The notes: generated by a model not told the origin, from the sequence alone. A stretch of 64,000 bases of DNA from Candidatus Omnitrophota bacterium (GCA_030649895.1 JAUSEX010000040.1:16839-80838); one strand, 5' to 3'. Numbered from the stretch's first letter, positions 2 to 18,497 are shown. Translations and numbers: made by a program.

Positions 2-958
2 GCGTTGTCATATTACAGGAATGTAATGGATAACGATAAACTTATAGAAGTCAATTCTCTGTTTGAAGAGGTGGCGAAGAAAGAAGGATTTTACTCGAGA
101 AAGCTTATGGAGGAAATTGCCGCAAAGGGCTCTATTAAAGAGATAGAAGATGTGCCTGAAAAATATAGAAAGATTTTTGTCACATCGCATGACATAGCTC
201 CCCTGTGGCATATAAGGATGCAGGCGGTGTTCCAGAAATACACTGATAATGCCGTATCAAAGACAGTTAACTTTCCGCACGATGCAGTAAAGGATGACAT
301 AAGAGAAGTATATATGCTGGCTTTTAAATTGGGATGTAAGGGCGTAACCATTTACAGGGATAAATCCAGGGAGGAACAGGTGCTTAATATTAATTCCAAT
401 GACACGGTGAAAAAAGAAGTAAGCGCTGATTCTGCAGTAGAACCCAAAGATAAGAAAAGCGTTGCTCCGAGGCCAAGGCCTGTTGTTACAAACGGCACTA
501 CGACAAAGGTTGCGACGGGATGCGGGAACCTTTATATAACTATAAATGTTGACGATAAGAGCCTGCCTTTTGAAGTATTTATTCAGATGGGCAAGGCTGG
601 CGGATGTGCTGCGAGTCAGCTGGAAGCGATCGGAAGGCTGGTATCTTTGGCACTCCGTTCAGGGGTGGAGAATAGCAAGATAGTAGAGCAATTAAGAGGC
701 ATACGCTGCCCGTCGCCTTCGTGGGAGAAAAGCGGGAGAATTTTTTCCTGCTCTGACGCAATTGCGAGAGTCCTGGAATTAAGGCTTGGTAACGGAAAGA
801 TGCATCATCAGGAAGAAGCCATGGAAAAACATTCTCCTCATACCATGATAGAGGACAAGCTTGGCACGGTGGTGGGGGTGTGCCCTGATTGCGGAGCTGC
901 GTTAAGGCACGAAGAGGGCTGCGTGGTTTGCCGATCCTGCGGATATTCTAAATGTTAA
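2..958 (+). CDS. nrdJ: Ribonucleotide reductase, class II (adenosylcobalamin-dependent), C-terminal fragment; 5' end lies outside the window
   Basis: Motifs typical of the class II RNR C-terminal region ([25 protein letters not shown]) and a C-terminal CxxC...CxxC zinc ribbon; the ORF is open to the window edge. Confidence 0.7.
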
Positions 959-1503
959 AACCGGATTCCTGGATCAAAAAAATGGCTTTAGAGTTTAATA
1001 TGATAAAGCCATTCGAGCCCCGGCAGATTAAAGATAAAAATATTTCATACGGCCTTTCAAGTTATGGTTACGATATAAGGATCGCGGATGAATTTAAAAT
1101 CTTCAAAGGCTTCCGCGATAAAGAAATCTTAGACCCTAAAAATATAAGGCCTGATCTATTTGAAGATTTTAAAGGGGACATTTGCGTAATCCCGTCTAAT
1201 TCATTTATCCTCGCAAGGTCCTTTGAATATTTCAAGATCCCGCCCAATGTCCTTGCGCTTTGCACAGGTAAAAGCACATACGCCAGGATAGGCGTAATAG
1301 TTAACGTTACGCCTCTTGAGCCTTCATGGGAAGGTTATCTTACTATAGCTATAAGTAATACCTCTGATTCTCCGGCAAAAATTTATGCAAACGAAGGTAT
1401 AGCCCAGGTTGTATTTTTCGAATCAGACGAGCAGTGCGACGTCACTTACGCTGACCGCAAAGGCAAATACCAGTCCCAGCAATCCATCACTCTATCCAAA
1501 TAA
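952..1503 (+). CDS. dcd: dCTP deaminase
   Basis: 183 aa with the Dcd/dUTPase-fold signature ([18 protein letters not shown] ... [10 protein letters not shown]); overlaps the nrdJ stop by a few nt. Confidence 0.8.
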
Positions 1504-1828: not shown

Positions 1829-4800
1829 GTGTTAAATTATAAGAATAAAATCCCAGTTAAATTAATAGCTTTTATATTAATTCAAGCATTCCTCTTAACA
1901 AGCGTAGCTTGCCCGGAATCTCTCTCTAATAAAGGCACATATAGTTTATATATGCATGGTAAAGATCTCAGGGTGCCTCTTGGTTCTTCTGATAGGATGC
2001 GAGAGGTTTTGAATAAGACAACCTCGCGAGGAGAAATAAGAGAAAAAGGCTCGCCTTTAAACCTGTTAGTATATTTAATTATGCATAAGCACTATGGGGG
2101 AAATTCTATATCTATGAGAGATTTGATAACAGCCAGGATGAATCCAGAAACAGATAAGTCATATGCTAGGAGCACTATTCGTCTTGAGATAAATAGTTTA
2201 AAGAAAATAGGCATGTTGGTGGTTGATGGTGAAGGCTTGGATGCTAGATGCGTATTAAGCGAAAAATTTACGCTTTATGATATGGCAGTTATAAATGAAG
2301 AAACCAAAAAAATAATACAAAGAGAAGGCTTGCAAGGCGAAGAGCTTGGCTTGAATAGGTATACGTTAACTGATTTAAGTGAAGAAGAAATAGGTAAAAT
2401 AAGAACAGCAGTGATAAGAGTCAAAGACAATATCAAAATGTCCAAAGAAGCTTTTAGAAGCCCTGAAAACAAAAGCCCCAGAAGAGTTTCTTATGTAAAA
2501 TATGGAAGGCAAACAAATAGTTTTATTAAGCAGTGCGTAAAAGGGGGTTTAATATTATTATGCGGGTTTATTTTCATACTTTATGCGTATCGTTGGATTG
2601 GGCCATCACAAGAGGCGCTTGATGCATTCGGAGACATCAGCGGTACTCCTGGAATAGTGCGGATGTATCAAGATGACAGGCAGCAGCAGCGTTACGAAGC
2701 AGAGCAAATCATAAAAATGCAAGCTAATGATAAAGATTTTTTGGAGACAAAAGAAACTGCGCGCGTTGAAGCGTTTTTAAAAGGCAATAGATTTGACGCA
2801 ATAAAACGCGCAGCCCAGGTGTTTGATTTAGAGCCGGAACTTATAGCCGGGTTTTTATATGAAGAAGCGATATACCAGGATACTCAAAATAAATTAGAGG
2901 TATTTACGAAAGAAAGCTTTTCCAGGTTGCTCAGTATAGGAGGTCCATACAGAGGTACGCTGGGTATGGGCCAGGTTGGCGTAGACTATATGATGAAAAA
3001 GGAATTTTTAGACTGCTTATTTGATAATATAGATTATTTTTTAACAACAGTTAAATCTGAGAGGGATCTGAAATCATTGCGTGAATTCAGGGATTTCTAT
3101 AAGCCCTGGCGTAGTCCTGGCCAGAATCACGGCGCTTTAATGGCGCATGTTCAAAGCGAACAAGGTTTAATCGTAAGTCTGGCTGATGCAGAAGAAGTAA
3201 ATATATTTGCGACAGGGTTTATTATCAGGGCAATCGCAAATCAGATTGCGGTAGATAATAAAGACGTTACTCTTATACCTAGTATGAATAGATTAAACGG
3301 TAATTCAACAAAGTGGGTTATTGTAGAATATAAAGAGATCCCGAAAGGCATGACTTCATTCGGAGATTTACTAAAGAGATACGGCGCGCCATTTTTAACA
3401 AGTTATTACCCTGCTTTAATGCCAGTCTTTGCTGATGCGCAGCGTTATTCAGGCGGAGATGAGAATTATTCCGCGAGAGGGCTCAGTAAAGTCGGAGCGT
3501 ATGAACAAATGTTAAAATGGGGTGGTTTTAAAAGAACGCCAGATCCTAAAAAATCTTTTGTTGCCCATTTCTCTCTCTATTCCAGAAGCAATAGCCTTAC
3601 CCGAGAAGGCCGTACTGACCAATTCCAGATAGGAGAAACTACCTACACAGTAGGCGAATTTAATAAAGAAGGCATAAACCAGTTAGGAGAGCCTGTAGTT
3701 ATTCCTGACCAGGACGGCCGGAATATTATTTTTACTATCCGCGGCCCGCCTGAAAAAAATAACCTAGCGGAATATCTTAGTAAGGATACATTGCTTCTGC
3801 AAGAGGCTATATTCCGCTCGCAATCCCTTTATAATGGCGGTTTAGATCAAGATATAACTATAATATTAGCTGATAAATACGATTATTTAGCAGGAGACCA
3901 CAGGCAAAATAATCTCATAATCCTGAATGCCTCAGACTTGGAAACTATGCTCCAACAAGATCAGGGCGCAATTCTTGTTTCTGAATTAATAGCCTCTTTA
4001 TTGTCGGAAGAACTTGCTCATGAAAGAGGCGCTGATGGAAAAGCTGAAACAGAAGAGAGACTGGCGCAGGATGGCGCTCATGCTACTAGATACGCTATTA
4101 CTCATAAGCCATATGCCCCTACATTATCGGAGTATATAAGTTTTCTTGAAAAGTATACATTAGAGATAAAAGAAGCTAAAGGATATTTGAGCTATTTGAA
4201 GGTGATGAATAGATATCAGGACATGGAATGGACCAGAAAGTTCTCTAAATTAGTTGCGGAGAGAAACGTATGTGTATTCCATATGGAGAATGCGCTTTCC
4301 AGGCAAATCCTGGACAATCTTTACAATAGATTTTTACAAAAAGGCTATACGAAAAAGGCAGCGGAATTTGCTGTTGGCCGCATTGCTCAGCTTACTATGG
4401 CAGGGGGCCTTGGGAATATAAAAAGGGAATTAGGAGATTCATGGAGTGAAAAAGGTGTTAATCCGAAATCTTTTAATCTGCTTTACGGTAGGTGGATTAA
4501 AGGTGTTGGCAATATAGATCAGTCTCTTGTGGGCACGGTATTAGAAACCATGGGGGATTCCCAGTTTAAATTTAAGACAAAGATTTTTAATAGAGATAAT
4601 GTTAATGAGGAGATAGAGGTAGAGGTAACTATATATAGAGATCCGTTTTCTCCATCAAATTACTGGATATACTGCCCGGAAATATTTGACGGGGCATACC
4701 CTGATAATAAGGTTCATCTTGCGCAGCAGCTTCTTTTGTATCGTAAAGCGAGCTTGGAATATCTATTATATCTCCACTCAAAAGGAGAAATTAAAGATAA

Positions 4801-7800
4801 ATTTTTATTCAGCTTGAGCGAGGTGTATACAGCTTTGTTAATCCCGGATGTAATCGAAGACGAATATAGTAATAACCCTGTTCTTAAAGATATATTTATA
4901 CATCATTATAACCATACTGTTGTAGCTGCCGGCATGCCTAAACTACCTCAGTTTTTATACGACATTTTACATATAAAAGAAAAATATAGAAATTCTGTAG
5001 TGCAGTATGGGGAGATAGTTTTGGCGGATCTTATTGGCCAGGGCTCAGATGAAATAACCGGCTGTTCGATGAAACATACAAAGGTGTTGAGAGAAAATAA
5101 TATGGCGAAATTTAAGGATAAAATATCTGATAATATAACTGAGGCAAATAGCGAGGGTGCGTATATAGATAACTGGCAGGACGAAGAAATGCAGAAAGCT
5201 TACGAAAGATATTTTTTAATGCTTGAGGCGACTGATGATGAAGATTTGTTTAAAAAGTTGGACGAAAATCAAGATATTCGTGAAAGATTTACAAAAGATA
5301 TGCTGCTTGCCAAAGAAAGGCAGAAGCAAGTTTTTAAAGAATGGCAAATTTCTTATGGCATTAAGTTAGAAGATGGGCTTAAGTCAGCGTCCCTTACCAG
5401 GAGAATGGTGCCTTATAAGAGATTAGATGTAATCACTGCTATGCTTGGCATAGGAAGTTATATGAATCAATTGAGGGAATTCAAGATAGGGTTTTTTGTG
5501 GGAGGAAGGCATTTTGATATAGACCAATCAGATTTTGGTATAACCCAGCTAAATGTTATTAATAAGATATCAGAAAGAGAACCAGGGTATATTGCTACGG
5601 TTCCTGATAATACCGACTACCCAGGTTATAATATTTTCAATGCCCATAATATTTATGAAGGGGTAGATGCGACTATCATGCTTTCCGATGAAGATTTAGA
5701 AGCAGGGCCGACAAGTCCCAGTAAGGGCCTGGTGAACGGAGCTATTATAATAGCTACTCCGGATGGAGTCATGTCAGAGCTTTTAATAGATTTTAACGAA
5801 GATTCTGTAAATGGGAATGGCTTTAGAGTAGAGTATTACGATCCAGATATTCAAAATATGGTTAGCGATTTTATAAAAGCAGTTGATCCAATATCTAAAG
5901 AGGAAATCCTTGAAAAAGGAAGGAATGGCAGCACACATTTTGCTTTTAATATTTCAAGAGGAATGGTTTATGCTGAATCTATAGGTTTAAAAGGATTTTT
6001 TGATACACAAAATAGATTATTATTTGACAGGGTGACTATATTCAATGCCCCGGAAGATTATATTAATTATATGCTCTGCTTATTTAATGGCGTGAAAGGG
6101 GCAGAAGAGATTATAGCGTGGCTTACGAACTTGAGAGACAATAAAGAATTAGAAGCGTATGAAAAATATTCAGACGTAAAGTCTTTCTTAATAGAAATAC
6201 TTGGTGCAAGGCGAGAGCCTACCATAAAAACTTTATTTAAGGCATTAAAGGGATTCAATGATGCATGGAACGATCCTGAAAAGAAAAACAGATTATTCTA
6301 CAATGCATTTAAGACAGGGATGCTTAAAGCCAATACCTCAACGCACCAGGGCCCTGGGCTGATAAAACTCTTGGAAGAAGGTTTGGAAAGAAAACAACCT
6401 GAAAAAGCAGCTAAGAGCGCGCTTATAGATTTCTTGGATAGCCATAAGGATATTTTTATTAAGTTTGAAGAAGCGGATTTGGATGTGCAAAAACTTATAG
6501 AAAGAGGCAAGGAATTTACGGTTGTTATGCTTGATGGGGATAGTATCAAGAAACGTAATGAGGCTTTTGGAAAAAGTATTGTGGATTGGATGCTCCTTGA
6601 GATGATAGCCTCATTCCATGAAACCGCTAAATTGCTGGATAAAGGCCCATTTAAGATTAATATGAAAGTTTTTCGAAGAGGTGGAGATGAGTTTGGTTTT
6701 ATTATTCAAGCAGATGGGCTTAATGATTTTGATGTAAAGGCGATTCTTGAAATTGTGCGCATAGGGTTGTTTGCAAAAATAAAGTCTAAATATGGCTTAT
6801 TTATTATTGACGCAGAAGGCTTGGCAGAGGAAGACAGGACTAATATTATAGATGAATTGAAGAAAGAAAGAATAGTCAAGGAGACTGAAGAGGTTGGAAA
6901 TAGCATTAATGTTTTATATGCCAAGGATAAGGAAGGTGGAACAGGTCGCATTAAGGATAAAATAGGCATAGCCAAGGTTACAGAAATAGAAGACGAATTT
7001 ATTCTCACGGGTTCTATAGGCGGCTGTTATGTCAATCAAGCAGTGCAGAATGGCATTAAAAGAGAAAATAAAGAAATAAATTTAAACAGCATAATGGCGG
7101 GTGTTAATTATTCTCTATTAAAGGCAAAAGAGGTTAGCATGATGCCTGGCGAAAGCGGGAGAAGAAAAGGGAATAGGATTTACTTATTTAGCGCCAGAGA
7201 ATCAGGTGAAGTAAGTGCTGAAGAATGGTTCCATGATATAGACAAGGTCTCCTCCTCCAGCATATTTAAAGACAGAGGCAGACAGGAAGAGATGGAGCGA
7301 TTATTTATTGCCAGCGAAATTCCAGAAGATAAGCGGGATAATCAAGTTTCGATTGTCTATAACGAGCAAGCGCTCAGGCGAATGATCCAGAACGATCCGG
7401 TCGGTATACTTATGGCTATTGATGCGCTCTGGGCAAATCCAGAGTTTGATAAAAAGTCTCAAGCAGCCAGTCGGGCAGGAGAAATTCATAAAGCGAGGAG
7501 CTATCTTAAAAATTTCTATAAATTTGGAATGTTAAACGATACGCTTCCGGAAAAGATGTATGATGCGGACTGGGTAATCAAGGTTTTTGGTTATACAATC
7601 AAAGAGGAAATAGAAAAGGTTTTTGGAAGAGGTTTTGAAGTAATAATAGCGCGAGCGCCTCCAGGCCAATCACCTGAAAGATTTTTAATCTGGATTAGGC
7701 CAGCTGAAGAAGAAAAACTTACAATAGATAATTTAGGCGAACTTATTACTGGAATAGCCAGTAAGATCTCAGATGACACTATACTTGAACCTTCCATTGC

Positions 7801-9436
7801 TGTAACAGTAACGCCTATCCAGCGTACCATAGGTCGTACTTTTGAAATCATTGATAATCTGAGCAAATTATATATAAGTTATCCTTCAAATAAAATGGAT
7901 ATAGCTGTGGCAAACAAATTTGAAGGAACTTTTCTTGAAGAAGGCGAGAATGTAAGAATTACTAAAGACGGGCATAGTATTGTTTTTTATGATGGGGGCA
8001 ATGAGCAGGAAACCAGAATACCAAGATTTATTGAATTACAAAGAGTCTATGCCTTAGAGGCGTTGCGAGCTAGTATACCTGAAAGGAAAGAAGTTTACGA
8101 TAGGACGCTCAGGAGGCTTTATGCTGATATTGAGGATATACCGAGAGATTCAGAAGAGGCTAAAAATATTATCCCAGATGGAATAGATTTTAGTGAAGCT
8201 CGGCAGAAAATAATAAATGCAATAAAACACAAAAGAACGCCGGATAAAGCAGCGGCCAGAGGTAATGTTTCTGCAGCAATGTTAAATGACACAATAAGGC
8301 CCTTGCTTGTACTTTTAGAAAATTCGGAATCTGCTTTTGATCTTCATACGCTTCTTGGTTTCTTTCAAGATTTGGAGGCAAATCCAGCCTTATCTGACCC
8401 AGAGGATATGAATTTATTTAGATTAGAAATGGATAAACTTTCAAGCAAAGCAAAAGTAAGAATCGCTTATAATATGGAAATGCTAAAAAATGAAAAGAAT
8501 GCGGATTTTCCTAAGTTGAGGTCAGTTTTTAATATACCTGAATTTTATGAATACGAGATCTTGGCGCAATTAAGCATAATTCCGTATATGGCTACTTATA
8601 CTTCTTCGATAAATGAGATTGCCGCTATAGCTGATAATCGCGGAGGATTTAGATTAGCAGGAAAACCTGTCGAAGAAAACGATGGTTATGTTTTTAGATT
8701 TCTGAAAGACGGGAAAAAATATGAAGTTTTCTTAGCGAAAAATTTTGATTTAAGATTAAGAGATAATTTAGAAGAGCTATTTGTACCCAATAAAAATGTA
8801 AACCCTGTTATGACAAACTTAGACAGTCTTTCTGAGATTTGGTCGATTTTTATAAAGTTTTATTTAATGGCGTTAGGTTTGGAGGAAGAGGATGAATCAG
8901 ACGGAATTGATTTTAATGGAAAAAGTTTAATATTTGTTGGCGCGGAAACCCCGGAAATCCCTTTGCAAATCGCTCGACAATTTCCTCTATCTCGAGTAAT
9001 AGTCGTTAACCCAAAGTGGGAAACAAAAAAAGGCGGCAATATTATTGTGATAGGAGACGAGGTTCAGCAGCTTGCAAAATATAAAGATGAGATTGGAATG
9101 GTAGATTTTGTTTTCTCGTCAGGACTTTTTAACATGGAATGGTCAAGGTTTGTTGTAGATGCTCAGAATGATTCTAAAAGCGTATATGAAAGAATGATGA
9201 GTCCTCTGGTTGAGATTTTATCTCCTGATGGCATAATGATTATTTCTGAGGGCCCAAAAGTGCCATCTATAAAGAGCAAGTTAGAAGAAGCGATCCAAGC
9301 CGTGGGCCTGAGAATTTTTAATGAAGAGATCGACATCGGCAAAGACGGAGGCATATATATTATTCGTAGAGCGAATTTAAGAAATGAGATTTTGGAGCGG
9401 AATGATTCCATACAAGCTGTTCAGTCAGGATTATAA
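1829..9436 (+). CDS. Giant membrane-anchored multidomain protein (2535 aa), function unknown; contains a GGDEF-like palm motif and a C-terminal Rossmann/SAM-MTase-like module
   Basis: Uninterrupted 7.6 kb ORF in 40% GC DNA. GTG start with an AAGGTG SD. N-terminal hydrophobic anchor (aa 9-28) and a second TM (aa 238-258). At nt ~6518-6790 the segment VVMLDGDSIKKRNEAFGKS...FRRGGDEFGFII resembles the GGDEF diguanylate-cyclase core. At nt ~8894-9254 LIFVGAETP...VDFVFSSGLF...LSPDGIMIIS resembles class I MTase motifs I-III but without a glycine-rich loop. Confidence 0.6.
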   Translation: MLNYKNKIPVKLIAFILIQAFLLTSVACPESLSNKGTYSLYMHGKDLRVPLGSSDRMREVLNKTTSRGEIREKGSPLNLLVYLIMHKHYGGNSISMRDLITARMNPETDKSYARSTIRLEINSLKKIGMLVVDGEGLDARCVLSEKFTLYDMAVINEETKKIIQREGLQGEELGLNRYTLTDLSEEEIGKIRTAVIRVKDNIKMSKEAFRSPENKSPRRVSYVKYGRQTNSFIKQCVKGGLILLCGFIFILYAYRWIGPSQEALDAFGDISGTPGIVRMYQDDRQQQRYEAEQIIKMQANDKDFLETKETARVEAFLKGNRFDAIKRAAQVFDLEPELIAGFLYEEAIYQDTQNKLEVFTKESFSRLLSIGGPYRGTLGMGQVGVDYMMKKEFLDCLFDNIDYFLTTVKSERDLKSLREFRDFYKPWRSPGQNHGALMAHVQSEQGLIVSLADAEEVNIFATGFIIRAIANQIAVDNKDVTLIPSMNRLNGNSTKWVIVEYKEIPKGMTSFGDLLKRYGAPFLTSYYPALMPVFADAQRYSGGDENYSARGLSKVGAYEQMLKWGGFKRTPDPKKSFVAHFSLYSRSNSLTREGRTDQFQIGETTYTVGEFNKEGINQLGEPVVIPDQDGRNIIFTIRGPPEKNNLAEYLSKDTLLLQEAIFRSQSLYNGGLDQDITIILADKYDYLAGDHRQNNLIILNASDLETMLQQDQGAILVSELIASLLSEELAHERGADGKAETEERLAQDGAHATRYAITHKPYAPTLSEYISFLEKYTLEIKEAKGYLSYLKVMNRYQDMEWTRKFSKLVAERNVCVFHMENALSRQILDNLYNRFLQKGYTKKAAEFAVGRIAQLTMAGGLGNIKRELGDSWSEKGVNPKSFNLLYGRWIKGVGNIDQSLVGTVLETMGDSQFKFKTKIFNRDNVNEEIEVEVTIYRDPFSPSNYWIYCPEIFDGAYPDNKVHLAQQLLLYRKASLEYLLYLHSKGEIKDKFLFSLSEVYTALLIPDVIEDEYSNNPVLKDIFIHHYNHTVVAAGMPKLPQFLYDILHIKEKYRNSVVQYGEIVLADLIGQGSDEITGCSMKHTKVLRENNMAKFKDKISDNITEANSEGAYIDNWQDEEMQKAYERYFLMLEATDDEDLFKKLDENQDIRERFTKDMLLAKERQKQVFKEWQISYGIKLEDGLKSASLTRRMVPYKRLDVITAMLGIGSYMNQLREFKIGFFVGGRHFDIDQSDFGITQLNVINKISEREPGYIATVPDNTDYPGYNIFNAHNIYEGVDATIMLSDEDLEAGPTSPSKGLVNGAIIIATPDGVMSELLIDFNEDSVNGNGFRVEYYDPDIQNMVSDFIKAVDPISKEEILEKGRNGSTHFAFNISRGMVYAESIGLKGFFDTQNRLLFDRVTIFNAPEDYINYMLCLFNGVKGAEEIIAWLTNLRDNKELEAYEKYSDVKSFLIEILGARREPTIKTLFKALKGFNDAWNDPEKKNRLFYNAFKTGMLKANTSTHQGPGLIKLLEEGLERKQPEKAAKSALIDFLDSHKDIFIKFEEADLDVQKLIERGKEFTVVMLDGDSIKKRNEAFGKSIVDWMLLEMIASFHETAKLLDKGPFKINMKVFRRGGDEFGFIIQADGLNDFDVKAILEIVRIGLFAKIKSKYGLFIIDAEGLAEEDRTNIIDELKKERIVKETEEVGNSINVLYAKDKEGGTGRIKDKIGIAKVTEIEDEFILTGSIGGCYVNQAVQNGIKRENKEINLNSIMAGVNYSLLKAKEVSMMPGESGRRKGNRIYLFSARESGEVSAEEWFHDIDKVSSSSIFKDRGRQEEMERLFIASEIPEDKRDNQVSIVYNEQALRRMIQNDPVGILMAIDALWANPEFDKKSQAASRAGEIHKARSYLKNFYKFGMLNDTLPEKMYDADWVIKVFGYTIKEEIEKVFGRGFEVIIARAPPGQSPERFLIWIRPAEEEKLTIDNLGELITGIASKISDDTILEPSIAVTVTPIQRTIGRTFEIIDNLSKLYISYPSNKMDIAVANKFEGTFLEEGENVRITKDGHSIVFYDGGNEQETRIPRFIELQRVYALEALRASIPERKEVYDRTLRRLYADIEDIPRDSEEAKNIIPDGIDFSEARQKIINAIKHKRTPDKAAARGNVSAAMLNDTIRPLLVLLENSESAFDLHTLLGFFQDLEANPALSDPEDMNLFRLEMDKLSSKAKVRIAYNMEMLKNEKNADFPKLRSVFNIPEFYEYEILAQLSIIPYMATYTSSINEIAAIADNRGGFRLAGKPVEENDGYVFRFLKDGKKYEVFLAKNFDLRLRDNLEELFVPNKNVNPVMTNLDSLSEIWSIFIKFYLMALGLEEEDESDGIDFNGKSLIFVGAETPEIPLQIARQFPLSRVIVVNPKWETKKGGNIIVIGDEVQQLAKYKDEIGMVDFVFSSGLFNMEWSRFVVDAQNDSKSVYERMMSPLVEILSPDGIMIISEGPKVPSIKSKLEEAIQAVGLRIFNEEIDIGKDGGIYIIRRANLRNEILERNDSIQAVQSGL

Positions 9437-9558: not shown

Positions 9559-10317
9559 ATGAACGGCAATATAAGGTTAGTTCTTTTAAGGCACGGGGAG
9601 AGCATCTGGAATAAGGAAAATAAATTTACAGGGTGGACTGATGTGGACCTTTCTGAAAAAGGCATGAGCGAGGCAAAAGAAGCAGGAAAGACCCTTAAGA
9701 AAGAAGGCTACGAGTTTGATGTAGCGTTCACATCTGTTTTAAAAAGGGCGATAAGGACACTGTGGCTTGTTCTGGATGAGATGGATTTAATGTGGATACC
9801 TGTATGTAATTCGTGGCGTTTGAACGAAAGGCATTACGGGGCGTTGCAGGGCCTTAATAAATCAGAAATGGCTCAAAAGTTCGGGGAAGACAAGGTGCTT
9901 ATCTGGAGAAGAAGCTATGATGTTCCGCCAATGGCGCTTGAAAAAGATGATTCGAGATATCCTGGAAATGATCCAAGATATAAAGGCCTTAGCGAAAAAG
10001 ACCTGCCTCTTACAGAGAGTTTAAAGGAAACAGTCGCAAGGGTTGTACCATATTGGAAGGAAGTAATCGCTCCTATGCTAGGGTCCGGCAAAAAGGTTAT
10101 TATAGCTGCGCATGGAAACAGCTTAAGGGCGCTCGTGAAATATCTGGATAATATATCAGAAGAAGAAATAGTGAAATTAAATATACCTACCGGGATCCCG
10201 CTTGTTTATGAGCTCACTAGAAACCTGAAGCCTTTGAAGCGTTATTATCTGGGCGACCAGGAGAAGATACGCGCCGCTATAGCGTCTGTTTCCAACCAGG
10301 GCAAGGCCGGCAAATAA
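9559..10317 (+). CDS. gpmA: 2,3-bisphosphoglycerate-dependent phosphoglycerate mutase
   Basis: [29 protein letters not shown] catalytic-His motif; 252 aa, full-length. Confidence 0.85.
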
Positions 10318-10383
10318 GTTCTTGAAATCATGTTAGTTTGATGTTAAAAGTAAAAAGTAATCGGCTCCCAATATACCACGCCC

Positions 10384-10412
10384 TTGACGATATCGCAATC
10401 ATAGGATATACT
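10384..10412 (+). promoter_or_regulatory. Sigma70-type promoter, TTGACG-N17-TATACT
   Basis: Near-consensus hexamers with a 17-nt spacer, about 140 nt upstream of the membrane-protein gene; the leader contains imperfect inverted repeats. Confidence 0.45.
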
Positions 10413-10550
10413 TTATCTTTTAGAAAATGAAGCTCAATCCTGTCAGGTTGAAACCAGGGATTTTTTGGGCGAAATACAAAGTCCTGAGCTTGTCGAAGGA
10501 CTGAGCCTGCTATTTTTCTGTGGCGGGCGAATGTAGAAAGGGGGGCATAT

Positions 10551-11225
10551 ATGGACTGGAACTTAATTGTAGTTGATCCAGTAAAAGCTATGTTGGTGAG
10601 GGCGGCCACATTTCTACCTACTTTAATAGGTATAATCGTTATACTTATAGTAGGGTGGATTGTAGCAGCGGTCCTGAGAAATGTAGTTGTAAAATTATTG
10701 AAGGTAGTACAGTTTGACGCTGCTAGCGAAAAATCAGGGCTAGCCGATGTCTTAAGAAAGGGAGGCATAAAGAATACTTTTTCGGAATTGATAGGCGGAC
10801 TTGTCTATTGGGTAATAATGCTTTTAGTTTTTATGGCGTCTCTGAATGCGCTTGGTATGACAGTTGTAGCGTCTTTACTGGACAAGGTTATACTTTATAT
10901 ACCGAATGTTATAGCGGCTATTTTTATAATTTCTCTTGGTATATTTTTCGCAAGCACTATAGGCTCCATTGTGATGACCGCTTGCATGAACGCCGGAATG
11001 AAACAGGCAAAGTTAATGAGCCAGGTAACGCAGACTGTAATAGTGATATTTGTGGCGATTATGACGCTAGAGCAGCTGAATATAGCTACCACGATATTGA
11101 ATACAACTATTACGGTAGTGTTAGGAGCCGTAGGATTGGCGTTTGCGCTTGCAGTAGGGCTTGGTTCAAAAGATATTGCCGGGAAGCTTATGCATGATTT
11201 AGTGGAAAAATTGAAAATTAAATAA
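10551..11225 (+). CDS. Polytopic inner-membrane protein (TM-helix repeat type, possibly mechanosensitive-channel related)
   Basis: 224 aa with about 5 predicted TM helices, repeated hydrophobic modules and a K-rich C-terminus; no catalytic motif recognised. Confidence 0.4.
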   Translation: MDWNLIVVDPVKAMLVRAATFLPTLIGIIVILIVGWIVAAVLRNVVVKLLKVVQFDAASEKSGLADVLRKGGIKNTFSELIGGLVYWVIMLLVFMASLNALGMTVVASLLDKVILYIPNVIAAIFIISLGIFFASTIGSIVMTACMNAGMKQAKLMSQVTQTVIVIFVAIMTLEQLNIATTILNTTITVVLGAVGLAFALAVGLGSKDIAGKLMHDLVEKLKIK

Positions 11226-11249
11226 TGTCTTCAAATTAAAGGTTTACAG

Positions 11250-11284
11250 CCCCGCATTCCCGAAAAGGGATGCGGGGTTTTTTA
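11250..11284 (+). terminator. Rho-independent terminator
   Basis: CCCCGCATTCCCG-AAAA-GGGATGCGGGG followed by TTTTTT. Confidence 0.75.
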
Positions 11285-11300
11285 ATGAGCCTGCCTGAAA

Positions 11301-11333
11301 GTGGGCATATCTACTTGCAAATATAGCAAGTAG
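11301..11333 (+). promoter_or_regulatory. Promoter TTGCAA-N17-TATAAT overlapped by the inverted repeat CTACTTGC-N7-GCAAGTAG (candidate operator)
   Basis: The hexamers and spacing are seen directly. The 8-bp perfect IR spans the -35 and spacer. ATG of the GspK-like gene lies 21 nt downstream with no clear SD. Confidence 0.5.
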
Positions 11334-11353
11334 TTTGTATAATAAAATACAAT

Positions 11354-14300
11354 ATGAATAGCGCGAGAGAAGAAAAAGGCATTGCGTTGATACTTGTGGT
11401 AAGCGTCCTGGCTGTCGCAAGCATAATGGCGATATCTTTTGCATTTACCATGAGGCTGGAATTGAAAGCCGCAGCCAATTATCTGGAAGCTACAAGGGCG
11501 TCTTATCTCGCGCAGTCAGGCATCACGTACGCGCAGCAGATTCTAAAAGAAGACTCGAGGGATATAGATAGCTTCGAAGACAAATGGCACACTATCTTTA
11601 CAGGCAGCGATATTGATAACGATGGAGACGGCCAGCCTGATTCAAAATGGATAAATATTTACAATGAGGAAAGCGAGGCCATAGGCAGGTATGCTGTCCT
11701 GGTGAGGGATGAAACCAGTTTTATGGATATAAATATAGCTTATAAGCACAATCTTTCGCTTTTAAAGGTTACGGAAGGCTGGACTCCATATGAGCTGGAC
11801 CTGCAAAAATTTATAAATTCTTCAGGCTTGAAAGATCCAGATAAGGTGTACGAAGATATCGTTAGTTTTAGGTATGGGTCTGATGGCCAGCCGGGCGAGA
11901 TGGGCGCGGACGATAACCAGAATCAAAGGATCCTGGATTCCGATGGCATCGATAATAACTCGAACGGCATCATAGATGAAGCGAGCGAAGGCGTGGATGA
12001 GCCGATGGAATACGAACCGTTTAATCTTCACGGGGACGACAAAGCATTCGAAACGCCTTTCGAAATAAGTAAAATTAAATCGATCGCAAAACAGGAGCTT
12101 TATAAATTGTATCCCTATATAACTACGTATTCGGTTGATAAGAATATAGATGTTCAGGGAAGGTTGAAGGATAATATTAATTCCATGGATAGCCAGACTC
12201 TTGCTGTATTGTTGGAAGACGCCGGCGTAAGCGACCCGTTTCAAAAAGCAGTTAATATTATAGACGCTTGTGACGATGATTTCAGCCAGAGTACCGTACC
12301 AAAATTATACAACAGGCTCGCAGTGATCAATAGAGGCGATACAGGAGACTGGATATGGAAAGGCAGCTGCTATCAGAGCGACGTAAAAGATGGGCAACCT
12401 TTTACGATTACCTGGATCAATCTTCCGGAAGGAGAATATTACATAGGCGTGTTTGGGATAAAAAATGAATTAGTGGGAGATGTTACTGTAAACGGCATGA
12501 CCCAGAATTATGTGAGGGATGGCGAGCTGCTGAGGATAGGGGCTGTCTCGTTTGAGAATAAAATCTTAAATCTTTCCATAAATAACAGCGCAGGGTCGGT
12601 TTGTTATTTTTCTTATCTTGAATTATATCCCAGGCTGGGCCAGCAGAATTTCAACTCGAGCGAGATAAGAGGCGTTGAAGGCATAAGGATAAATGAAATA
12701 ATGGTAAGGCCTGTTATTTCCAGAAGCACTTTTAGCAACCAGGCACCTGGCGGAGACTGGACATGGCAAAATGCATACTATCAGAATAGTCAGCCAAAGG
12801 GCGGAAAAACCGGGGAAGGCGAATGGACCTGGAAGGATGTTCCCAATGGCAAATATTACGCCAGGTTATTTGCGGGCGTAGCCGATCAGGAGATAGGAAA
12901 TGTTGAAATAGGGGGCGTTCATTCGGAAGGGATGAGAGACGGAGATTTGTTTGGCAGCGGAAAAGTTGTTACTGTCTCAGGCGGGAAATTTACTATTAGG
13001 ATTCAGAATCAAAGAGAAACAGGATCTACGTATTTTAAATCTGTAGATTTGAGCCAGCAACCTGACGGAGAATATATAGAGCTTATAAATCTCACTCCCA
13101 GGGACGTGAATCTGAGCGGCTGGACCGTAGAAGGCCCGAGCAAAGAAGGCTGGCCTGCTACTATCCCTCTTGGTACGACAATAGGCCCTCACGAGCACAT
13201 TGCGCTGGCTATTGATAAAGACGATACACAGTCAGGGATAAATAATAACGGTATTTCATTTACATCGATATGGGGTAAAGAAAAATCCACAACTTTGCAT
13301 TTTTTAAGGGTGATAAGCCCTAATTCCGATCTTCTGTCTGACGTTGCTTTTATGGGAGGGAATTTTATAGCGCTTAAAGAACCCATGGGCCATGTCGTGG
13401 ATAAGCAGGAATATTTTAGCGGCAATGCAGCTGATTATAAGGCATTGGAGAAATCAGACCCTAGCTATGTATTGGATTCAAATAATAACGGCATACCTGA
13501 CAACTGGTATGCGTCTACCGCGAAAAAAGGAGCGACGCCCGGCCTGCCTAATGATAATGACGGGATGAGAGAGAAGATAGGAGAAGAGATAATAGAGCAT
13601 TACGATACCGAGGTGAACGCAAAGAACAAGAATTTTTCTTCGATAGGAGAGATTTCATTTGTTTCGCTTGGAACTGAACCATGGAAGAGCATAGCTCCGC
13701 AGGATGTCGCGAAGATTGCGGACAGGCTTACCGTATTCGGGATAAAACTGGAAGCGGAAAATAAAATCGTGAAAGGTTCCGAAGGAAACTGGAAAGTTGT
13801 GCAGAGGGCAGCTCCCTTGACAGACTGGTGCGAAAATGGAAAAGAGGATTCGATCGGCATGTGGAGATGGGAGGCGAAGGATGGCTTGGAAAACGGCTAT
13901 TATAAATTGAAAATATTCGGGGAAGAAGGCGAGGCAATAGCCATATCAATACATCTCGCGGACGATACATGGACGAGTTTTACGCCGGCCCTCACCCCTG
14001 GGCCTGACAAAGGAATAAATTTTGGTAATATAGAAATAGGCACTGGTAGTTCTATAGCTACGCCGAGCGGGGTCCTGGAAATAAAAATAAAGAACAGTTC
14101 GGAGACAGGCGCCGCTCACTTTGATTTTATAAGCTTGGACCCAGTAAATAACCTATACGGCAGGATAAATGTAAATACAGCCTCTAAAAGAGTTTTAGCT
14201 ATTCTACCAGGTATAGATGACGCCATAGCGGATAATATAATTAATAACAGGGTTTTTGGGAATAAAAATAGCCTTTATCTTGGCATAGGCGATCTTATCA

Positions 14301-14470
14301 CCACCCAGGCGTTAGGCTCAACTGATGTGGATAAGAAAAATAGGTTCAGGCAGATTTCGAATCTTATCACAGTCCATTCCGATTGTTATAGGATTATTGT
14401 CACGGGCCAGGCTCTTGAAAAAGGGAAGGTCCTGGCTGAAAAGAAGATCTGGGTGGTGTTTGAGCGTTAA
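11354..14470 (+). CDS. Giant GspK/PilX-like minor pseudopilin with adhesin-like inserts
   Basis: N-terminus GIALILVVSVLAVASIMAISFAF...RLELKAAANYLEATRASYLAQSGI and C-terminus INVNTASKRVLAILPGIDDAIADNII (HhH pair) match the T2SS GspK family. Between them about 800 aa contain DxDxDG Ca-binding-like loops (DIDNDGDGQPD, DSDGIDNNSNG), three GDW(I/T)W...GEYY beta-sandwich-like repeats (nt ~12336-13980) and a lamin-tail-domain-like segment EYIELINLTPRDVNLSGWTVEG (nt ~13069-13230). Confidence 0.6.
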   Translation: MNSAREEKGIALILVVSVLAVASIMAISFAFTMRLELKAAANYLEATRASYLAQSGITYAQQILKEDSRDIDSFEDKWHTIFTGSDIDNDGDGQPDSKWINIYNEESEAIGRYAVLVRDETSFMDINIAYKHNLSLLKVTEGWTPYELDLQKFINSSGLKDPDKVYEDIVSFRYGSDGQPGEMGADDNQNQRILDSDGIDNNSNGIIDEASEGVDEPMEYEPFNLHGDDKAFETPFEISKIKSIAKQELYKLYPYITTYSVDKNIDVQGRLKDNINSMDSQTLAVLLEDAGVSDPFQKAVNIIDACDDDFSQSTVPKLYNRLAVINRGDTGDWIWKGSCYQSDVKDGQPFTITWINLPEGEYYIGVFGIKNELVGDVTVNGMTQNYVRDGELLRIGAVSFENKILNLSINNSAGSVCYFSYLELYPRLGQQNFNSSEIRGVEGIRINEIMVRPVISRSTFSNQAPGGDWTWQNAYYQNSQPKGGKTGEGEWTWKDVPNGKYYARLFAGVADQEIGNVEIGGVHSEGMRDGDLFGSGKVVTVSGGKFTIRIQNQRETGSTYFKSVDLSQQPDGEYIELINLTPRDVNLSGWTVEGPSKEGWPATIPLGTTIGPHEHIALAIDKDDTQSGINNNGISFTSIWGKEKSTTLHFLRVISPNSDLLSDVAFMGGNFIALKEPMGHVVDKQEYFSGNAADYKALEKSDPSYVLDSNNNGIPDNWYASTAKKGATPGLPNDNDGMREKIGEEIIEHYDTEVNAKNKNFSSIGEISFVSLGTEPWKSIAPQDVAKIADRLTVFGIKLEAENKIVKGSEGNWKVVQRAAPLTDWCENGKEDSIGMWRWEAKDGLENGYYKLKIFGEEGEAIAISIHLADDTWTSFTPALTPGPDKGINFGNIEIGTGSSIATPSGVLEIKIKNSSETGAAHFDFISLDPVNNLYGRINVNTASKRVLAILPGIDDAIADNIINNRVFGNKNSLYLGIGDLITTQALGSTDVDKKNRFRQISNLITVHSDCYRIIVTGQALEKGKVLAEKKIWVVFER

Positions 14471-14500
14471 GTAACCGGAAAACTCATAATGTTGATTTGG

Positions 14501-14580
14501 AAAATAGGGAAAATAGGGACAGCGCCCATTTATTATTTATTTTTTATAGCATAAAAATGGGCGCTGTCCCTATTTTAGGA
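14501..14580. repeat. Family B palindromic repeat (copy 1 of 2), also terminator-like
   Basis: AAATAGGGACAGCGCCCATTT - 23 nt AT-rich loop - AAATGGGCGCTGTCCCTATTT, preceded by a GAAAATAGGG duplication; near-identical copy at 56262-56337. Confidence 0.7.
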
Positions 14581-14681
14581 GCTGGCTATTATGTAATGGG
14601 TTGCCTAGCTATTCAAATAGTGCAAGATTGCTCAAGATTATGCTTGATTTTTTTTGCTGACAGGATATAATTAATTTAAAT

Positions 14682-16493
14682 ATGCATAGGATTGAATATA
14701 ATAAAAAATATTTTATTCCAAAGACCGTTTTATTTTTTACAGCGGTCTTTTTTATTTTAGCGGTTGGGATCGCGGCTGCGAGCATAGCTAGCAGTAAAAA
14801 TTATAAATTGCATACAGCCCTGGCAGACGGCGGAGGGGCAAGCGGGGTTTCAAAGAATTACAACTCGGAGAATAGCGTGGGTTACCCGTTAGGCACCAAT
14901 GTTGCTACGGGCGTCAGTTATAAAATATACGGCGGATGGCTTTCCACCAGAAACACCATTCCTGACGTAGGCATATTAACATATAACGATGGCCAGGCTA
15001 CATTTGAAAATCCTCTTACATTGAAATGGGCGGTTACAGATAAAGACAATGATCCTCAGCGTTACTATCAGGTCCAGATCTCTAAAGACAGTTTTGAAAC
15101 AATAGATTTTGATTCAGGTATTGTTAAGACCAATTCCCAGCAATACACCACGCCTATATTGCCCACCACCGAAGGCTATGTAGACTATAAGTGGCGCGTG
15201 AGGGTAAGCGATGGATATGATTATTCAGGATGGGAAACAGCCAGTAGCGGGTTTAAGCTCGCAACGGGAACAATGGATCTGCCTATTATATTGGCTAAGA
15301 CTTCGCCTGGTGGAAGCGATATCCCGTCAAAATTATGGCAGGGATGCGGAGATCCATACATGTCATGGGAATACCCTGTAAAAGGCGTTCAACCTGCTGG
15401 TTACAGTTATGCGTGGGGAGATATGCCGGATAACCAGGCTGATACTCAGGGCACTTCTTACCAGACCCCTTCCGATCTTTTGGGGGATGGCGTCAGGGTG
15501 TTTAATCTTAAGGCTGAGAATTCAGCGGGTAATTGGGGTGAAATAGCTTCTTATGAATTATGGATAGATAGAGGCAGCCCTGTTATAGGTAATTATTCTC
15601 CGGAAAAAGGTTCGCTAATAGCGTCCGATAGGCCTACTATTACCATAGCTGCCAGCGATGATAAAAGCGGTGTGGATCCAAACGCTATTAATATGAAGAT
15701 AAATAAATCCACAGTAGGCGCTGCATATGATGAGAATAGCCAGAGCATTGTATATCTTCCATCTACGCCTCTCAGCGAAGGCAGTAATGTAGTGTCTATT
15801 GAAGTGGCTGACCTTGTGGGCAATAAAACATCCCAGGTTGTCTGGAGTTTTACTGTTGACACAAGGGGCCCGACAGGTTATGTGATAATAAATAACCAGG
15901 ATGCTGTTACTAATTCCGTATATGTCAACCTTGTATTTGGCGCCAGCGACTCTACGACAGATGTGGCAGATATGGTAATCTCGAACGACGGGGTTTTTGA
16001 CAATGAGCAATGGGAGCAGTTTAAAACCAAGAAGGAAAACTGGACGCTGACTCCTATAAGCGGTACCCGCAAGGTTTATGTAAAGTTTAAGGACACGGCA
16101 GGAAATGAATCAGAGGTTTTTAGCGATACGATAGAACTTATAATAATAGCGCCCGATACCATAATCACAAGCGGGCCGAGTTTGTTGACAAAGTCGAAAG
16201 AGGCCCTGTTTACTTTTAAAAGCAGCGTAGAGAATTGTGTATTTAGATGGAAATTTGATGATGATGAATGGTCTGCCTGGTCCAAGGATATTGCCGTATC
16301 CAAAAAAGACCTGAAAAACGGGAATCATTATTTCAAGGTTCAGGCTGCAAAAGATGTTAATAAGAATTCCAAAATAGACATAGACGAAATAGACCCTGTT
16401 CCTGCGGAAAGAACCTGGACCATAAGCGAAACAGGGGTTATAAAGCCGGAACCTGAGAAAAAGAAGCCTTTCAAATTTTGGAAAGAAGAATAA
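14682..16493 (+). CDS. Membrane-anchored surface protein with tandem Ig-like/FN3-like domains
   Basis: N-terminal TM (VLFFTAVFFILAVGIAAASIA) followed by several beta-sandwich segments typical of bacterial Ig-like domains (e.g. ITIAASDDKSGVD...VVSIEVADLVGN...); lies between the GspK-like gene and the pil genes. Confidence 0.5.
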   Translation: MHRIEYNKKYFIPKTVLFFTAVFFILAVGIAAASIASSKNYKLHTALADGGGASGVSKNYNSENSVGYPLGTNVATGVSYKIYGGWLSTRNTIPDVGILTYNDGQATFENPLTLKWAVTDKDNDPQRYYQVQISKDSFETIDFDSGIVKTNSQQYTTPILPTTEGYVDYKWRVRVSDGYDYSGWETASSGFKLATGTMDLPIILAKTSPGGSDIPSKLWQGCGDPYMSWEYPVKGVQPAGYSYAWGDMPDNQADTQGTSYQTPSDLLGDGVRVFNLKAENSAGNWGEIASYELWIDRGSPVIGNYSPEKGSLIASDRPTITIAASDDKSGVDPNAINMKINKSTVGAAYDENSQSIVYLPSTPLSEGSNVVSIEVADLVGNKTSQVVWSFTVDTRGPTGYVIINNQDAVTNSVYVNLVFGASDSTTDVADMVISNDGVFDNEQWEQFKTKKENWTLTPISGTRKVYVKFKDTAGNESEVFSDTIELIIIAPDTIITSGPSLLTKSKEALFTFKSSVENCVFRWKFDDDEWSAWSKDIAVSKKDLKNGNHYFKVQAAKDVNKNSKIDIDEIDPVPAERTWTISETGVIKPEPEKKKPFKFWKEE

Positions 16494-16525
16494 TCTAACC
16501 TGTTTATTTTCAAGTAGTTACCTTC

Positions 16526-16556
16526 AGTCTTCAGCTTTCAGCCTTCAGCTTTTTCC
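16526..16556. repeat. Short tandem CTTCAG(C/T) repeats
   Basis: CTTCAGTCTTCAGCTTTCAGCCTTCAGCTTT; the related GGCTGAAGG/CCTTCAGCC motif recurs at 37736-37762 and 55803-55833. Confidence 0.5.
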
Positions 16557-16566
16557 AGTGCTACCC

Positions 16567-16595
16567 TTGACAAATACTATCAGATAGTATATAGT
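16567..16595 (+). promoter_or_regulatory. Promoter TTGACA-N17-TATAGT with the palindrome ACTATCAGATAGT in the spacer (candidate operator)
   Basis: Hexamers and spacing seen directly; the 13-bp perfect palindrome sits inside the spacer, upstream of merR-pilM. Confidence 0.5.
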
Positions 16596-16744
16596 TATAC
16601 CACTCTATATCAAATAGAGATAAGATATTGTTCTATTTTTACAGGTTGGGCAAGACAATAAGATTTTGAAGGCCGAATTAACAAAAAGTTCGGCCTGAGT
16701 CGTCTAAGGGGCTAAACATGTTATTGAATAGTGAGGTGGTATAT

Positions 16745-16930
16745 ATGAAAGAAAAATATTATTCCGCAGAAACTGCGGCGCAGTTTCTTGGCATATCTAA
16801 GCAGACTCTTATAAGATATGAAAACAAGAGATTGTTTCCAGCGGCCAGAAGAAATACCCTTAATGGCTGGCGGGAATACACGGAAGACGATATTAAAAAA
16901 CTCAGGGCTATAATGGGAAGGACCAGGTAA
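16745..16930 (+). CDS. MerR-family HTH transcriptional regulator (short)
   Basis: YSAETAAQFLGISKQTLIRYENKRLFPAARR-NGWREYTEDDIKKL is a MerR-type HTH. GAGGTGG SD 6 nt before the ATG at 16745 (the ORF-track start at 16718 is less likely). Its stop abuts the pilM start. Confidence 0.6.
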   Translation: MKEKYYSAETAAQFLGISKQTLIRYENKRLFPAARRNTLNGWREYTEDDIKKLRAIMGRTR

Positions 16931-18457: not shown

Positions 18458-18497
18458 GGGGCAGGCGCGCCTGTTCTCTACAAGGGTATGGTGCGAG

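Follow-up and report, generated by a model that had tools for sequence, protein, structure and literature searches.

Members of the Omnitrophota encode mosaic long proteins with glycosyltransferase (GT), methyltransferase (MTase), peptidase, and GGDEF domains near type II secretion-like genes, as described in two reports (10.1101/2023.11.21.568195; 10.64898/2026.06.07.730766). The larger of these giant proteins were read as prey-adhesion and wall-digestion factors beside genes resembling a type II secretion system (T2SS) (West-Roberts et al. 2023, 10.1101/2023.11.21.568195). Here, we analyzed a window of 64,000 nucleotides (nt) from a Candidatus Omnitrophota bacterium (GCA_030649895.1 JAUSEX010000040.1:16839-80838), in which a giant gene occupies positions 1829-9436 of the + strand. 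Its product is anchored in the membrane and combines, as a mosaic, at least eight modules that fold independently, here M1 to M8. By organism, mosaic content, and neighborhood, it belongs with the Archaeovorin-type multi-enzyme long proteins as a small relative. The two share the phylum, a membrane-associated and very divergent mosaic of glycosyl-transferase-type, MTase, peptidase-like, and GGDEF domains, the proximity of type II secretion or type IV pilus-like genes, and many domains that are visible only by structure prediction. Archaeovorin-type proteins run to over 10-30 thousand amino acids (kaa) with numerous transmembrane (TM) regions and SecA-DEAD, whereas the protein here has 2.5 kaa (ten- to fifty-fold smaller) and two hydrophobic segments, and Pfam finds no SecA-DEAD, C39, or S8 domain in it. 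Two of its modules, M4 and M5, are divergent members of well-known families, and M6, M3, and M8 resemble GGDEF domains, zincins, and class I MTases, respectively, in fold but lack the motifs that define these families.

M4 (amino acids (aa) 801-1530; 4229-6418, + strand) is, judging by Pfam, TIGRFAM, and PDB profile comparisons, a homologue of the GT35 alpha-glucan phosphorylases that retains the predicted catalytic residues. Its own PF00343 score of 23.5 bits lies below the gathering threshold of 27, and TIGR02094 ('more_P_ylases') matches with an E value of 9e-7 and a score of 28 vs a cut-off of 191.7. The M4 family profile gave 48 matches in the PDB, all of them glycogen, starch, maltodextrin, or alpha-glucan phosphorylases (best E 6e-22). 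As in the GT35 enzymes (GlgP/MalP), the position of the pyridoxal phosphate (PLP) lysine is kept: EAGPTSPSK1299 aligns with EASGTSNMK of the phosphorylases, which makes K1299 the candidate PLP lysine. The GGLG (859-862) and YNHT (1027-1030) motifs are also kept. Unlike those enzymes, M4 is embedded in a 2535-aa membrane protein, scores below the Pfam threshold, and carries an insert of ~120 aa near its C-terminal end (aa ~1340-1460, window 5846-6208). The insert is common to the relatives P0010, P0022, and P0025, and it occurs three times in the 3796-aa P0030. An earlier note on this DNA, made from the sequence alone, had found no assignable motif in more than 80% of the protein. That estimate did not hold, as both Pfam and NCBIfam place a carbohydrate-phosphorylase region at aa 1054-1328; the GT35 domain (aa ~800-1530) was absent from that account.

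M5 (aa 1545-1810; 6461-7258, + strand) is supported by Pfam, PDB profile, and alignment as a true GGDEF homologue, with catalytic and guanine-binding residues that appear intact. The diguanylate-cyclase core proposed earlier for nt 6518-6790 was confirmed: the catalytic motifs are kept at aa 1569-1622, and the module is homologous to diguanylate cyclases by profile. The signature reads RRGGDEF at 1616-1622. In the alignment with DgcR, D1569 falls at its DID, N1577 at its ND, and D1586 at its GD position, and these residues correspond to the metal-binding Asp and the guanine-binding Asn and Asp. The DGDS string occupies aa 1569-1572 (nt 6533-6544) and the GGDEF string aa 1618-1622 (nt 6680-6694), both within the proposed range. 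The suggested PF00990 search gave a divided answer. The score of M5 itself (18.6 bits) stayed under the gathering threshold of 23.8, whereas the same module in the homologue P0006 passed it at 34.9 bits and 37 of the 39 PDB matches of the family profile were GGDEF cyclases (best E 5.6e-6). The HMM match of M5 is partial because of an insert of ~80 residues before the last strands. This insert sets M5 apart from GGDEF cyclases such as PleD, DgcZ, WspR, and DgcR, as do the missing RxxD I-site, which many but not all GGDEF members carry five residues before GGDEF (KINM at aa 1609-1612 here), and a motif-less GGDEF-fold partner that follows directly.

That partner is M6 (aa 1811-2139, core aa ~1860-2011; 7259-8245, + strand), so the protein does not hold the single embedded palm module that had been described. 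On its AlphaFold2 (AF2) model and fold search, M6 is a second, cryptic pseudo-GGDEF domain. The model predicts the core at a local confidence (pLDDT) of about 75-93, with a palm fold superposable on GGDEF domains; Foldseek with this model also gives 3ezu. The second GGDEF fold was assigned to M6 because M5 is excluded from that model. Sequence profiles of M6 gave no PDB match, and hhalign against M5 returned a probability of 0.2. The signature hairpin, read from the order of the secondary-structure elements, is ARAPPGQSPERF; APPGQSPE replaces GGDEF, a GG[DE]EF signature is absent, and ARAPPG-SP is invariant across distant relatives. In layout, this tandem of an active-type and a degenerate copy may resemble the way in which C1 and C2 are paired in class III cyclases or the Palm domains in Cas10.

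M2 (aa 284-568; 2678-3532, + strand) may be an SLT/Tse3-like muramidase domain with the candidate catalytic residue Glu346, as weakly suggested by its family profile. Among the PDB matches of M2, Tse3 (PA3484) ranked first and was alone in being consistent; this type VI muramidase of Pseudomonas aeruginosa has an SLT fold and known catalytic residues (PMC3792639). The six best matches of the profile were all Tse3, at an E value of about 0.09 that is not significant by itself. Three motifs are collinear: LIAGFLYEE pairs with LIGAIILAE250, LGMGQV pairs with IGLGQ280V, and NIFAT is the third. In this weak alignment, E346 lies opposite the catalytic Glu250 of Tse3 and Q382 opposite Gln280. The Gln of the GLxQ-like motif is replaced by Asn in four of five homologues. 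Unlike Tse3, M2 has no type VI secretion system context and is internal, behind a twin-arginine-like helix. A resemblance to lytic transglycosylases had been suggested before and gained weak support: the strings are in place (LYEE at aa 343-346 and GMGQV at aa 379-383, nt 2855-2977), and the Tse3-like match aligns a catalytic Glu. On the other side, Pfam SLT (PF01464) gave no match at E values up to 10, the model of the region is of low confidence, and the top 50 Foldseek matches of the aa 259-800 model include no lysozyme-like entry.

M3 (aa 575-800; 3551-4228, + strand) is, on Foldseek and AF2, a probable zincin-fold domain with a degenerate metal site, which the earlier note had overlooked. 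All of its top 50 Foldseek matches in the PDB are M1-family zinc aminopeptidases (E 0.04-0.3, about 150-200 columns), with Foldseek probabilities of 0.25-1.0, most of them ≥0.9, and the M3 part of the model has a pLDDT of 65-89. The zinc motif of M1 aminopeptidases is HELAH. M3 is similar to their thermolysin-like zincin domain at the level of fold and has lost the zinc-binding HExxH; by eye and without residue-level superposition, EELAH (aa 727-731, in the helix EELAHE) was put at that position. The homologues read EKLVH, EKLAH, or EELAY. On this model, M3 is probably a degenerate zincin fold and not a metalloprotease, because the first zinc-ligand His is replaced by Glu and the relatives have the catalytic Glu changed to Lys or the second His to Tyr. 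Segments that resemble M3 by eye have an intact HExxH in P0004 (GLAHELRHEAG, ~aa 2920-2960), P0016 (GLEHELRHEAG, ~aa 265-325), and P0007 (GLEHELYHEAL, ~aa 270-300). Sister proteins may therefore carry active zincin versions of M3.

M7 (aa 2148-2320; 8270-8788, + strand) was modeled as a helical bundle with a small beta-sheet at a pLDDT of about 80-94. It recurs in six other proteins, and the Foldseek lists gave no distinct fold match for it. M8 (aa 2321-2535; 8789-9433, + strand) is, by fold model and family alignment, a class I methyltransferase-like Rossmann domain with the seven-stranded Rossmann-type fold. The earlier note had placed a C-terminal MTase-like Rossmann fold lacking GxGxG here, and this was upheld for aa ~2360-2535, with the strings inside the range it gave. 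In the alignment of its 10 members, VG-x-ET..P, V-NP, and FSSGLF are invariant, and motif I GxGxG and the acidic beta-2 residue are absent; in M8 the strings are VGAET (2370-2374), VVNP (2392-2395), and FSSGLF (2429-2434; nt 8936-9130). Canonical binding of S-adenosylmethionine (SAM) by M8 is doubtful, because these invariant VG-x-ET..P and V-NP strings replace GxGxG and the acidic residue. M8 differs from the class I SAM MTases (fibrillarin, FtsJ, Kmr, small-molecule O-MTases) in its VGAET, in the Asn-Pro after beta-2, and in the lack of a profile match. Pfam and PDB sequence searches yielded no significant match for M8, including the Pfam MTase profiles that had been suggested as a check, and M8 forms a small family of its own.

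Three modules no longer have their canonical motifs (EELAH stands for HExxH, APPGQSPE for GGDEF, and VGAET for GxGxG), which could mean that the protein is a largely decayed fusion, in which domain fragments are shuffled under relaxed selection and only the 5' anchor, and perhaps the phosphorylase, matter. The sub-threshold PF00343 and PF00990 scores of the protein itself, the low content of guanine and cytosine (GC), and a frame break in the related locus L003 agree with such decay. We consider it quite improbable. The degenerate modules hold invariant motifs of their own across distant relatives (FSSGLF and VG-x-ET, ARAPPG-SP, and ILADKYDYLAGDH), which indicates purifying selection. A 7.6-kb reading frame has also stayed open at a GC content of 37.6%, and the catalytic residues of GGDEF and GT35 are kept.

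The gene itself agrees with the earlier description of one uninterrupted 7.6-kb open reading frame (ORF) between dcd and gpmA: 2535 codons from a GTG start at 1829 to 9436 on the + strand. This start is supported, because the relatives align from residue 1. The same protein is deposited at NCBI as MDO8603202.1, 'glycogen/starch/alpha-glucan phosphorylase', from a Candidatus Omnitrophota metagenome-assembled genome. That record has 2440 aa and begins at Met96, so the conserved leader and the first hydrophobic helix (window 1829-2113) are cut off. The labels 'unknown function' and 'essentially uncharacterised' were overstated, given this phosphorylase name, the overlooked GT35 domain, and the mosaic long proteins already published from Omnitrophota. 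The comparisons described below show homologues module by module along the whole length (aa 1-2535), as expected of a genuine gene. We are highly confident of this layer of the explanation, a real gene built of the modules described.

A word-indexed full-length search of 5.8 billion proteins found four relatives, and a profile search with M2 and M3 added six more. Exhaustive HMMER with aa 1336-2535 against 1.84 billion cluster representatives returned 28 proteins, which match in one or two modules only; none of these 28 is a canonical GGDEF protein. Pairwise and iterative comparisons showed the modules recurring in other orders and combinations among the relatives. These other combinations, the metagenome-assembled source, and a GC content of the giant gene five points below its flanks (37.6% vs 43%) could hint at an assembly chimera or a sequencing artefact that joined unrelated genes. 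Such an artefact is hardly credible. The order leader-M1-TM-M2-M3-GT35-GGDEF recurs on an independent contig (P0002/L003), M2-M3-GT35 in P0006, M3-GT35 in P0010 and P0028, and GGDEF-M6 is contiguous in P0005, P0006, and P0007. The identical protein lies on a 104.6-kb NCBI contig, and the flanks are syntenic. Only the M6-M7 and M7-M8 junctions have no counterpart in another protein. The earlier note had named a chimera as an outcome that would overturn its reading, and most junctions recurring on independent contigs speak against it.

The same neighborhood was found in two GTDB genomes (L002 and L003) and in thirteen metagenome contigs. A scan of genome contigs with a single protein as the query had given nothing, and three loci were found with the alignment as the query. 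The conserved frame consists of a ribonucleotide reductase (RNR) gene, dcd, a promoter, a leader RNA, a leader peptide followed by a variable body, and gpmA. The flanks were compared with L002 and L003 over window 5-1503 and 9559-14470. Their amino acid identities are high: 96% in RNR, 88-89% in dCTP deaminase, 84-85% in the gpmA product, and 88-91% in an MscS-like protein, with 84% in a 1038-aa protein compared in L002 only. The giant protein falls to 42-46% in most of the shared modules, with 49% in M1 and 33% in the GGDEF region. On these comparisons, the window ORF is a local allele of one orthologous locus in an Omnitrophota clade, and the search for orthologous giant ORFs in related bins, which had been advised, was answered at this same dcd-gpmA position.

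The alleles differ widely. L002 encodes 1759 aa with a more canonical DUF3417 and Phosphorylase pair at the same position, L007 a P0005-like protein of 2949 aa with CheR, HATPase, metallophosphatase, and MTase domains, and L008 and L010-L012 P0004-like proteins of about 3800 aa. The L003 allele has 2016+334 aa with a frame break and is uninterrupted in P0015; the break is either a sequencing error or a real frameshift. The 334-aa ORF (L003 14665-15669) begins just before the 2016-aa ORF stops at 14671 and ends in an MTase-like domain whose motif I, ILDVGYG, is more canonical. This domain is a distant relative of M8 and has a weak Methyltransf_23 match (E 6e-4). Conserved flanks around a divergent, module-swapping body form the pattern expected for diversifying selection or frequent allele exchange at the giant gene.

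The N-terminus of the protein is constant among these alleles. The leader peptide (aa 1-58; 1829-2002, + strand) was defined by a leader hidden Markov model (HMM), by hydropathy, and by its presence in relatives. Its build of ~55 aa comprises a Lys-rich start, hydrophobic segment 1 of ~20 residues (aa ~8-30), C/Y-PES, and LRVP, and the relatives follow the pattern ML(N/S)..K..K(L/I)I..L.Q.FL.TS..(Y/C)PES...LRVP. It is common to at least 13 differently built relatives and occurs once within the window. A profile of the peptide matched a single 65-aa protein in the 5.8-billion protein set. Downstream of the leader RNA, it begins the next ORF in 15/15 related loci with enough downstream DNA (leader HMM E 1e-12 to 1e-32). 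We rejected counting these 15 co-occurrences as independent associations, since RNR-dcd is present in every locus with enough upstream DNA; the leader-bearing loci appear to be orthologues of one locus and not a repeated association. Many relatives also end in similar C-terminal tails (window 9416-9433): ..AVQSGL, ..AAQSGL, ..ATQQSL, ..AIQQSL, ..SARQSL, ..A(A/T)RDDL, and ..IREKL. Leader peptide and tails could be targeting or processing signals.

M1 (aa 59-215; 2003-2473, + strand) is shared with P0002 and P0005, and a PDB profile search with it gave no significant match. A winged-helix DNA-binding domain, considered by eye, was dropped for lack of Pfam or PDB profile support; the best match was a SAM domain (E 0.55). 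M1 is followed by an Arg-Arg (RR) motif and hydrophobic segment 2 (aa 217-258; 2477-2602, + strand), identified from hydropathy and homologues. The Kyte-Doolittle profile has exactly two strong peaks, at aa ~8-30 and ~236-258, in line with the two hydrophobic anchors noted before. Segment 2 is flanked by net charges of +5 N-terminally and -2 C-terminally. The RR stretch reads SPRRVSYVK here with no preceding Met, and internally MPRRTFLK or MTRRRFVK in homologues, where MPRRTFLK and the Ala/Gly-rich stretch behind it look like a twin-arginine signal. In the twin-arginine (Tat) consensus, S/T-R-R-x-F-L-K precedes a mildly hydrophobic stretch, and the signal is N-terminal in the exported protein; in this protein the RR motif is internal. 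The strongly positive N-flank of helix 2, together with the twin-arginine-like relatives, would place aa 259-2535 outside, which fits a muramidase-like domain. Lys residues also precede the leader helix, so that this helix should insert N-in too. In relatives at the locus, CheR-type MTase, HATPase, and metallophosphatase domains lie on either side of the second helix.

The orientation bears on what the protein does. One possibility, which we regard as serious but fairly short of probable, is a cytoplasm-facing, membrane-tethered enzyme hub: helix 1 would run N-in to C-out, helix 2 would return, and aa 259-2535 would be cytoplasmic. GT35 would then turn over the cell's own storage glucan, the GGDEF pair would provide or sense local c-di-GMP, and the parts that resemble SLT and zincin domains would persist as remnants with a glycan-binding or structural role. 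This arrangement puts the cofactor-dependent modules (GTP, PLP/phosphate, perhaps SAM) in the compartment that supplies them, and it agrees with the NCBI phosphorylase name, with just two hydrophobic segments, and with the Lys-rich residues before the first. The preprint 10.64898/2026.06.07.730766 reads sugar-metabolism and signaling Pfam modules of long Omnitrophota proteins as compatible with an inner-membrane-anchored cytoplasmic arrangement. Several observations oppose the hub. The N-flank charge of helix 2 and the twin-arginine-like motif of the homologues argue for the opposite orientation, and the CheR-type MTase between the two helices in P0005 and L007 would be periplasmic. A housekeeping role leaves 42-46% identity and module turnover amid 84-96% flanks unexplained, and the muramidase-like domain would have no obvious cytoplasmic substrate.

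Our preferred reading, to which we give a little less than an even chance, is an envelope-associated toolbox for a host- or prey-dependent lifestyle. It was favored over the hub because of the hypervariability, the SLT/Tse3-like module, the secretin and pilus genes nearby, and the published reading of the larger giant proteins. The leader and the RR-flanked helix would tether the protein to the membrane, where the SLT-like module may engage cell-wall glycan. The GT35 module, with its PLP lysine, GGLG, and YNHT kept, is predicted from sequence to phosphorolyse alpha-1,4-glucan. The first GGDEF domain, which has catalytic and guanine-binding residues and no I-site, would make c-di-GMP once two copies come together. 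The modules whose canonical motifs are lost (pseudo-GGDEF, pseudo-zincin, and MTase-like) could serve as binding, regulatory, or scaffolding parts. A 5' leader RNA, through its two terminator-like hairpins, would gate expression, and the gene body would diversify rapidly, as it should if the protein encounters a biotic partner.

A number of points weigh against the toolbox. In the protein itself, neither Phosphorylase nor GGDEF reaches its Pfam gathering threshold, the Tse3 match is weak (E about 0.09), and the M2 part of the AF2 model has a pLDDT <50 over much of its length, with a mean of 60 for aa 259-800. No secretion signal of a known type was identified, and the charge signals of the two helices conflict. 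GGDEF needs GTP, and nucleotide-dependent domains occur on both sides of the second helix, so any two-helix topology leaves one of them outside the cell. Finally, the fast divergence could reflect relaxed constraint.

The leader RNA invoked in the toolbox reading lies directly upstream. A sigma-70-type promoter-like site, TTGACA-17-TATACT (1545-1573, + strand), agrees with the consensus at 11/12 positions and is conserved in the related loci that reach far enough upstream. A structured 5' leader RNA of about 210 nt (1580-1790, + strand) follows, is conserved in 15 related loci, and was delineated by alignment and covariation. The consensus promoter and leader that the earlier note had assigned to the gene were thereby verified, with a terminator-like hairpin (hairpin 1, 1642-1665) after the promoter. 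A U-run follows this hairpin. A long closing stem pairs 1697-1713 with ~1766-1781, with a U-run after it too, and encloses the invariant 28-nt loop UAUUGAAUAGGGCCUCUCUCCCAUGGCG (1712-1740). Across 14 distinct aligned copies, 8 pairs showed compensatory change vs 2.3 +/- 1.0 in shuffles (0/500), and slid controls gave 0-3 compensatory pairs. Folding of the single sequence was not more stable than shuffles (z -1.3), and the structure therefore rests on covariation. The leader RNA is 82-89% identical in nucleotides to the related loci, above the adjacent dcd gene (75-86%) and far above third codon positions (62-70%).

The 280 nt upstream of the giant ORF are conserved at the DNA level among related loci, and an exact 23-mer from this upstream region found the 13 metagenome contigs. 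Rfam gave no match in region 1400-2000, and ARAGORN found no tRNA or tmRNA there. Two terminator-like hairpins lie between a strong promoter and a 7.6-kb gene, which suggests attenuation or antitermination control of the giant gene by the leader. We regard the leader as a candidate new cis-regulatory element, an attenuator, a riboswitch, or an antiterminator. In the first half of the leader, GCCAUGGG (1622-1634) is complementary to CCCAUGGC in the invariant loop (1722-1740), with 8 possible pairs, and GGGCCUCU is present in both segments. Both are invariant in the sampled copies, and their complementarity could form an alternative pairing or a pseudoknot. A search by term of both Omnitrophota long-protein papers found neither a conserved 5' RNA/leader cassette, nor a single hypervariable dcd-gpmA locus, nor a tandem active/degenerate GGDEF pair, nor, in 10.64898/2026.06.07.730766, any mention of a riboswitch.

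Upstream of the giant ORF lie the dCTP-deaminase gene dcd (952-1503) and the 3' end of the RNR gene. A histidine-phosphatase/gpmA-type gene (9559-10317) follows downstream, and the order continues with an MscS-like gene, the gene for the 1038-aa LTD/T2SS-K-like protein, PilM/N-type genes, and a secretin. The 1038-aa protein gene is also kept in L002. A syntenic cluster resembling type IV pilus (T4P) and type II secretion systems spans window 11354-22346, 2-13 kb downstream of the giant gene. It contains the 1038-aa LTD plus T2SS-K-like protein, a 603-aa Ig-like protein, a 508-aa ORF matching both PilM and PilN, a T2SS-M-like gene, and an 831-aa secretin. The earlier note had asked whether orthologous giant ORFs sit next to pilus and secretin loci; for the giant gene of the window, these T4P/T2SS-like genes lie at the distance given. 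PADLOC gave no defense-system match.

A more specific version, which we think unlikely, is that the dcd-gpmA locus encodes a polymorphic prey- or host-directed effector, in which the constant 5' cassette controls expression and export and an interchangeable body delivers enzymes onto the partner cell or into it. The SLT-like module would then act as a wall breaker, the phosphorylase would mobilize the partner's storage glucan, and the GGDEF/pseudo-GGDEF pair would synthesize a cyclic dinucleotide inside the partner's cytoplasm. For its part, the leader RNA would represent a new class, either a riboswitch or an element for processive antitermination that is reserved for very long genes.

The mosaic giant proteins of the Omnitrophota are the presumed basis of a predatory or episymbiotic lifestyle and are too large and too divergent for direct study. 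At 2.5 kaa, the relative described here is small enough for piecewise expression, and folds are now assigned to most of its modules. Two of these, GT35 and GGDEF, appear catalytically intact, which opens their activities to testing. Among c-di-GMP enzymes, a tandem of an active-type and a motif-less GGDEF domain within a GT-B/SLT-like protein is uncommon. With flanks at 84-96% and a body at 42-46% identity, the exchange of modules among genomes lets domain shuffling be followed at this locus as in a natural experiment. For the regulation and targeting of such genes, a handle is offered by the constant promoter, leader RNA, and leader peptide.

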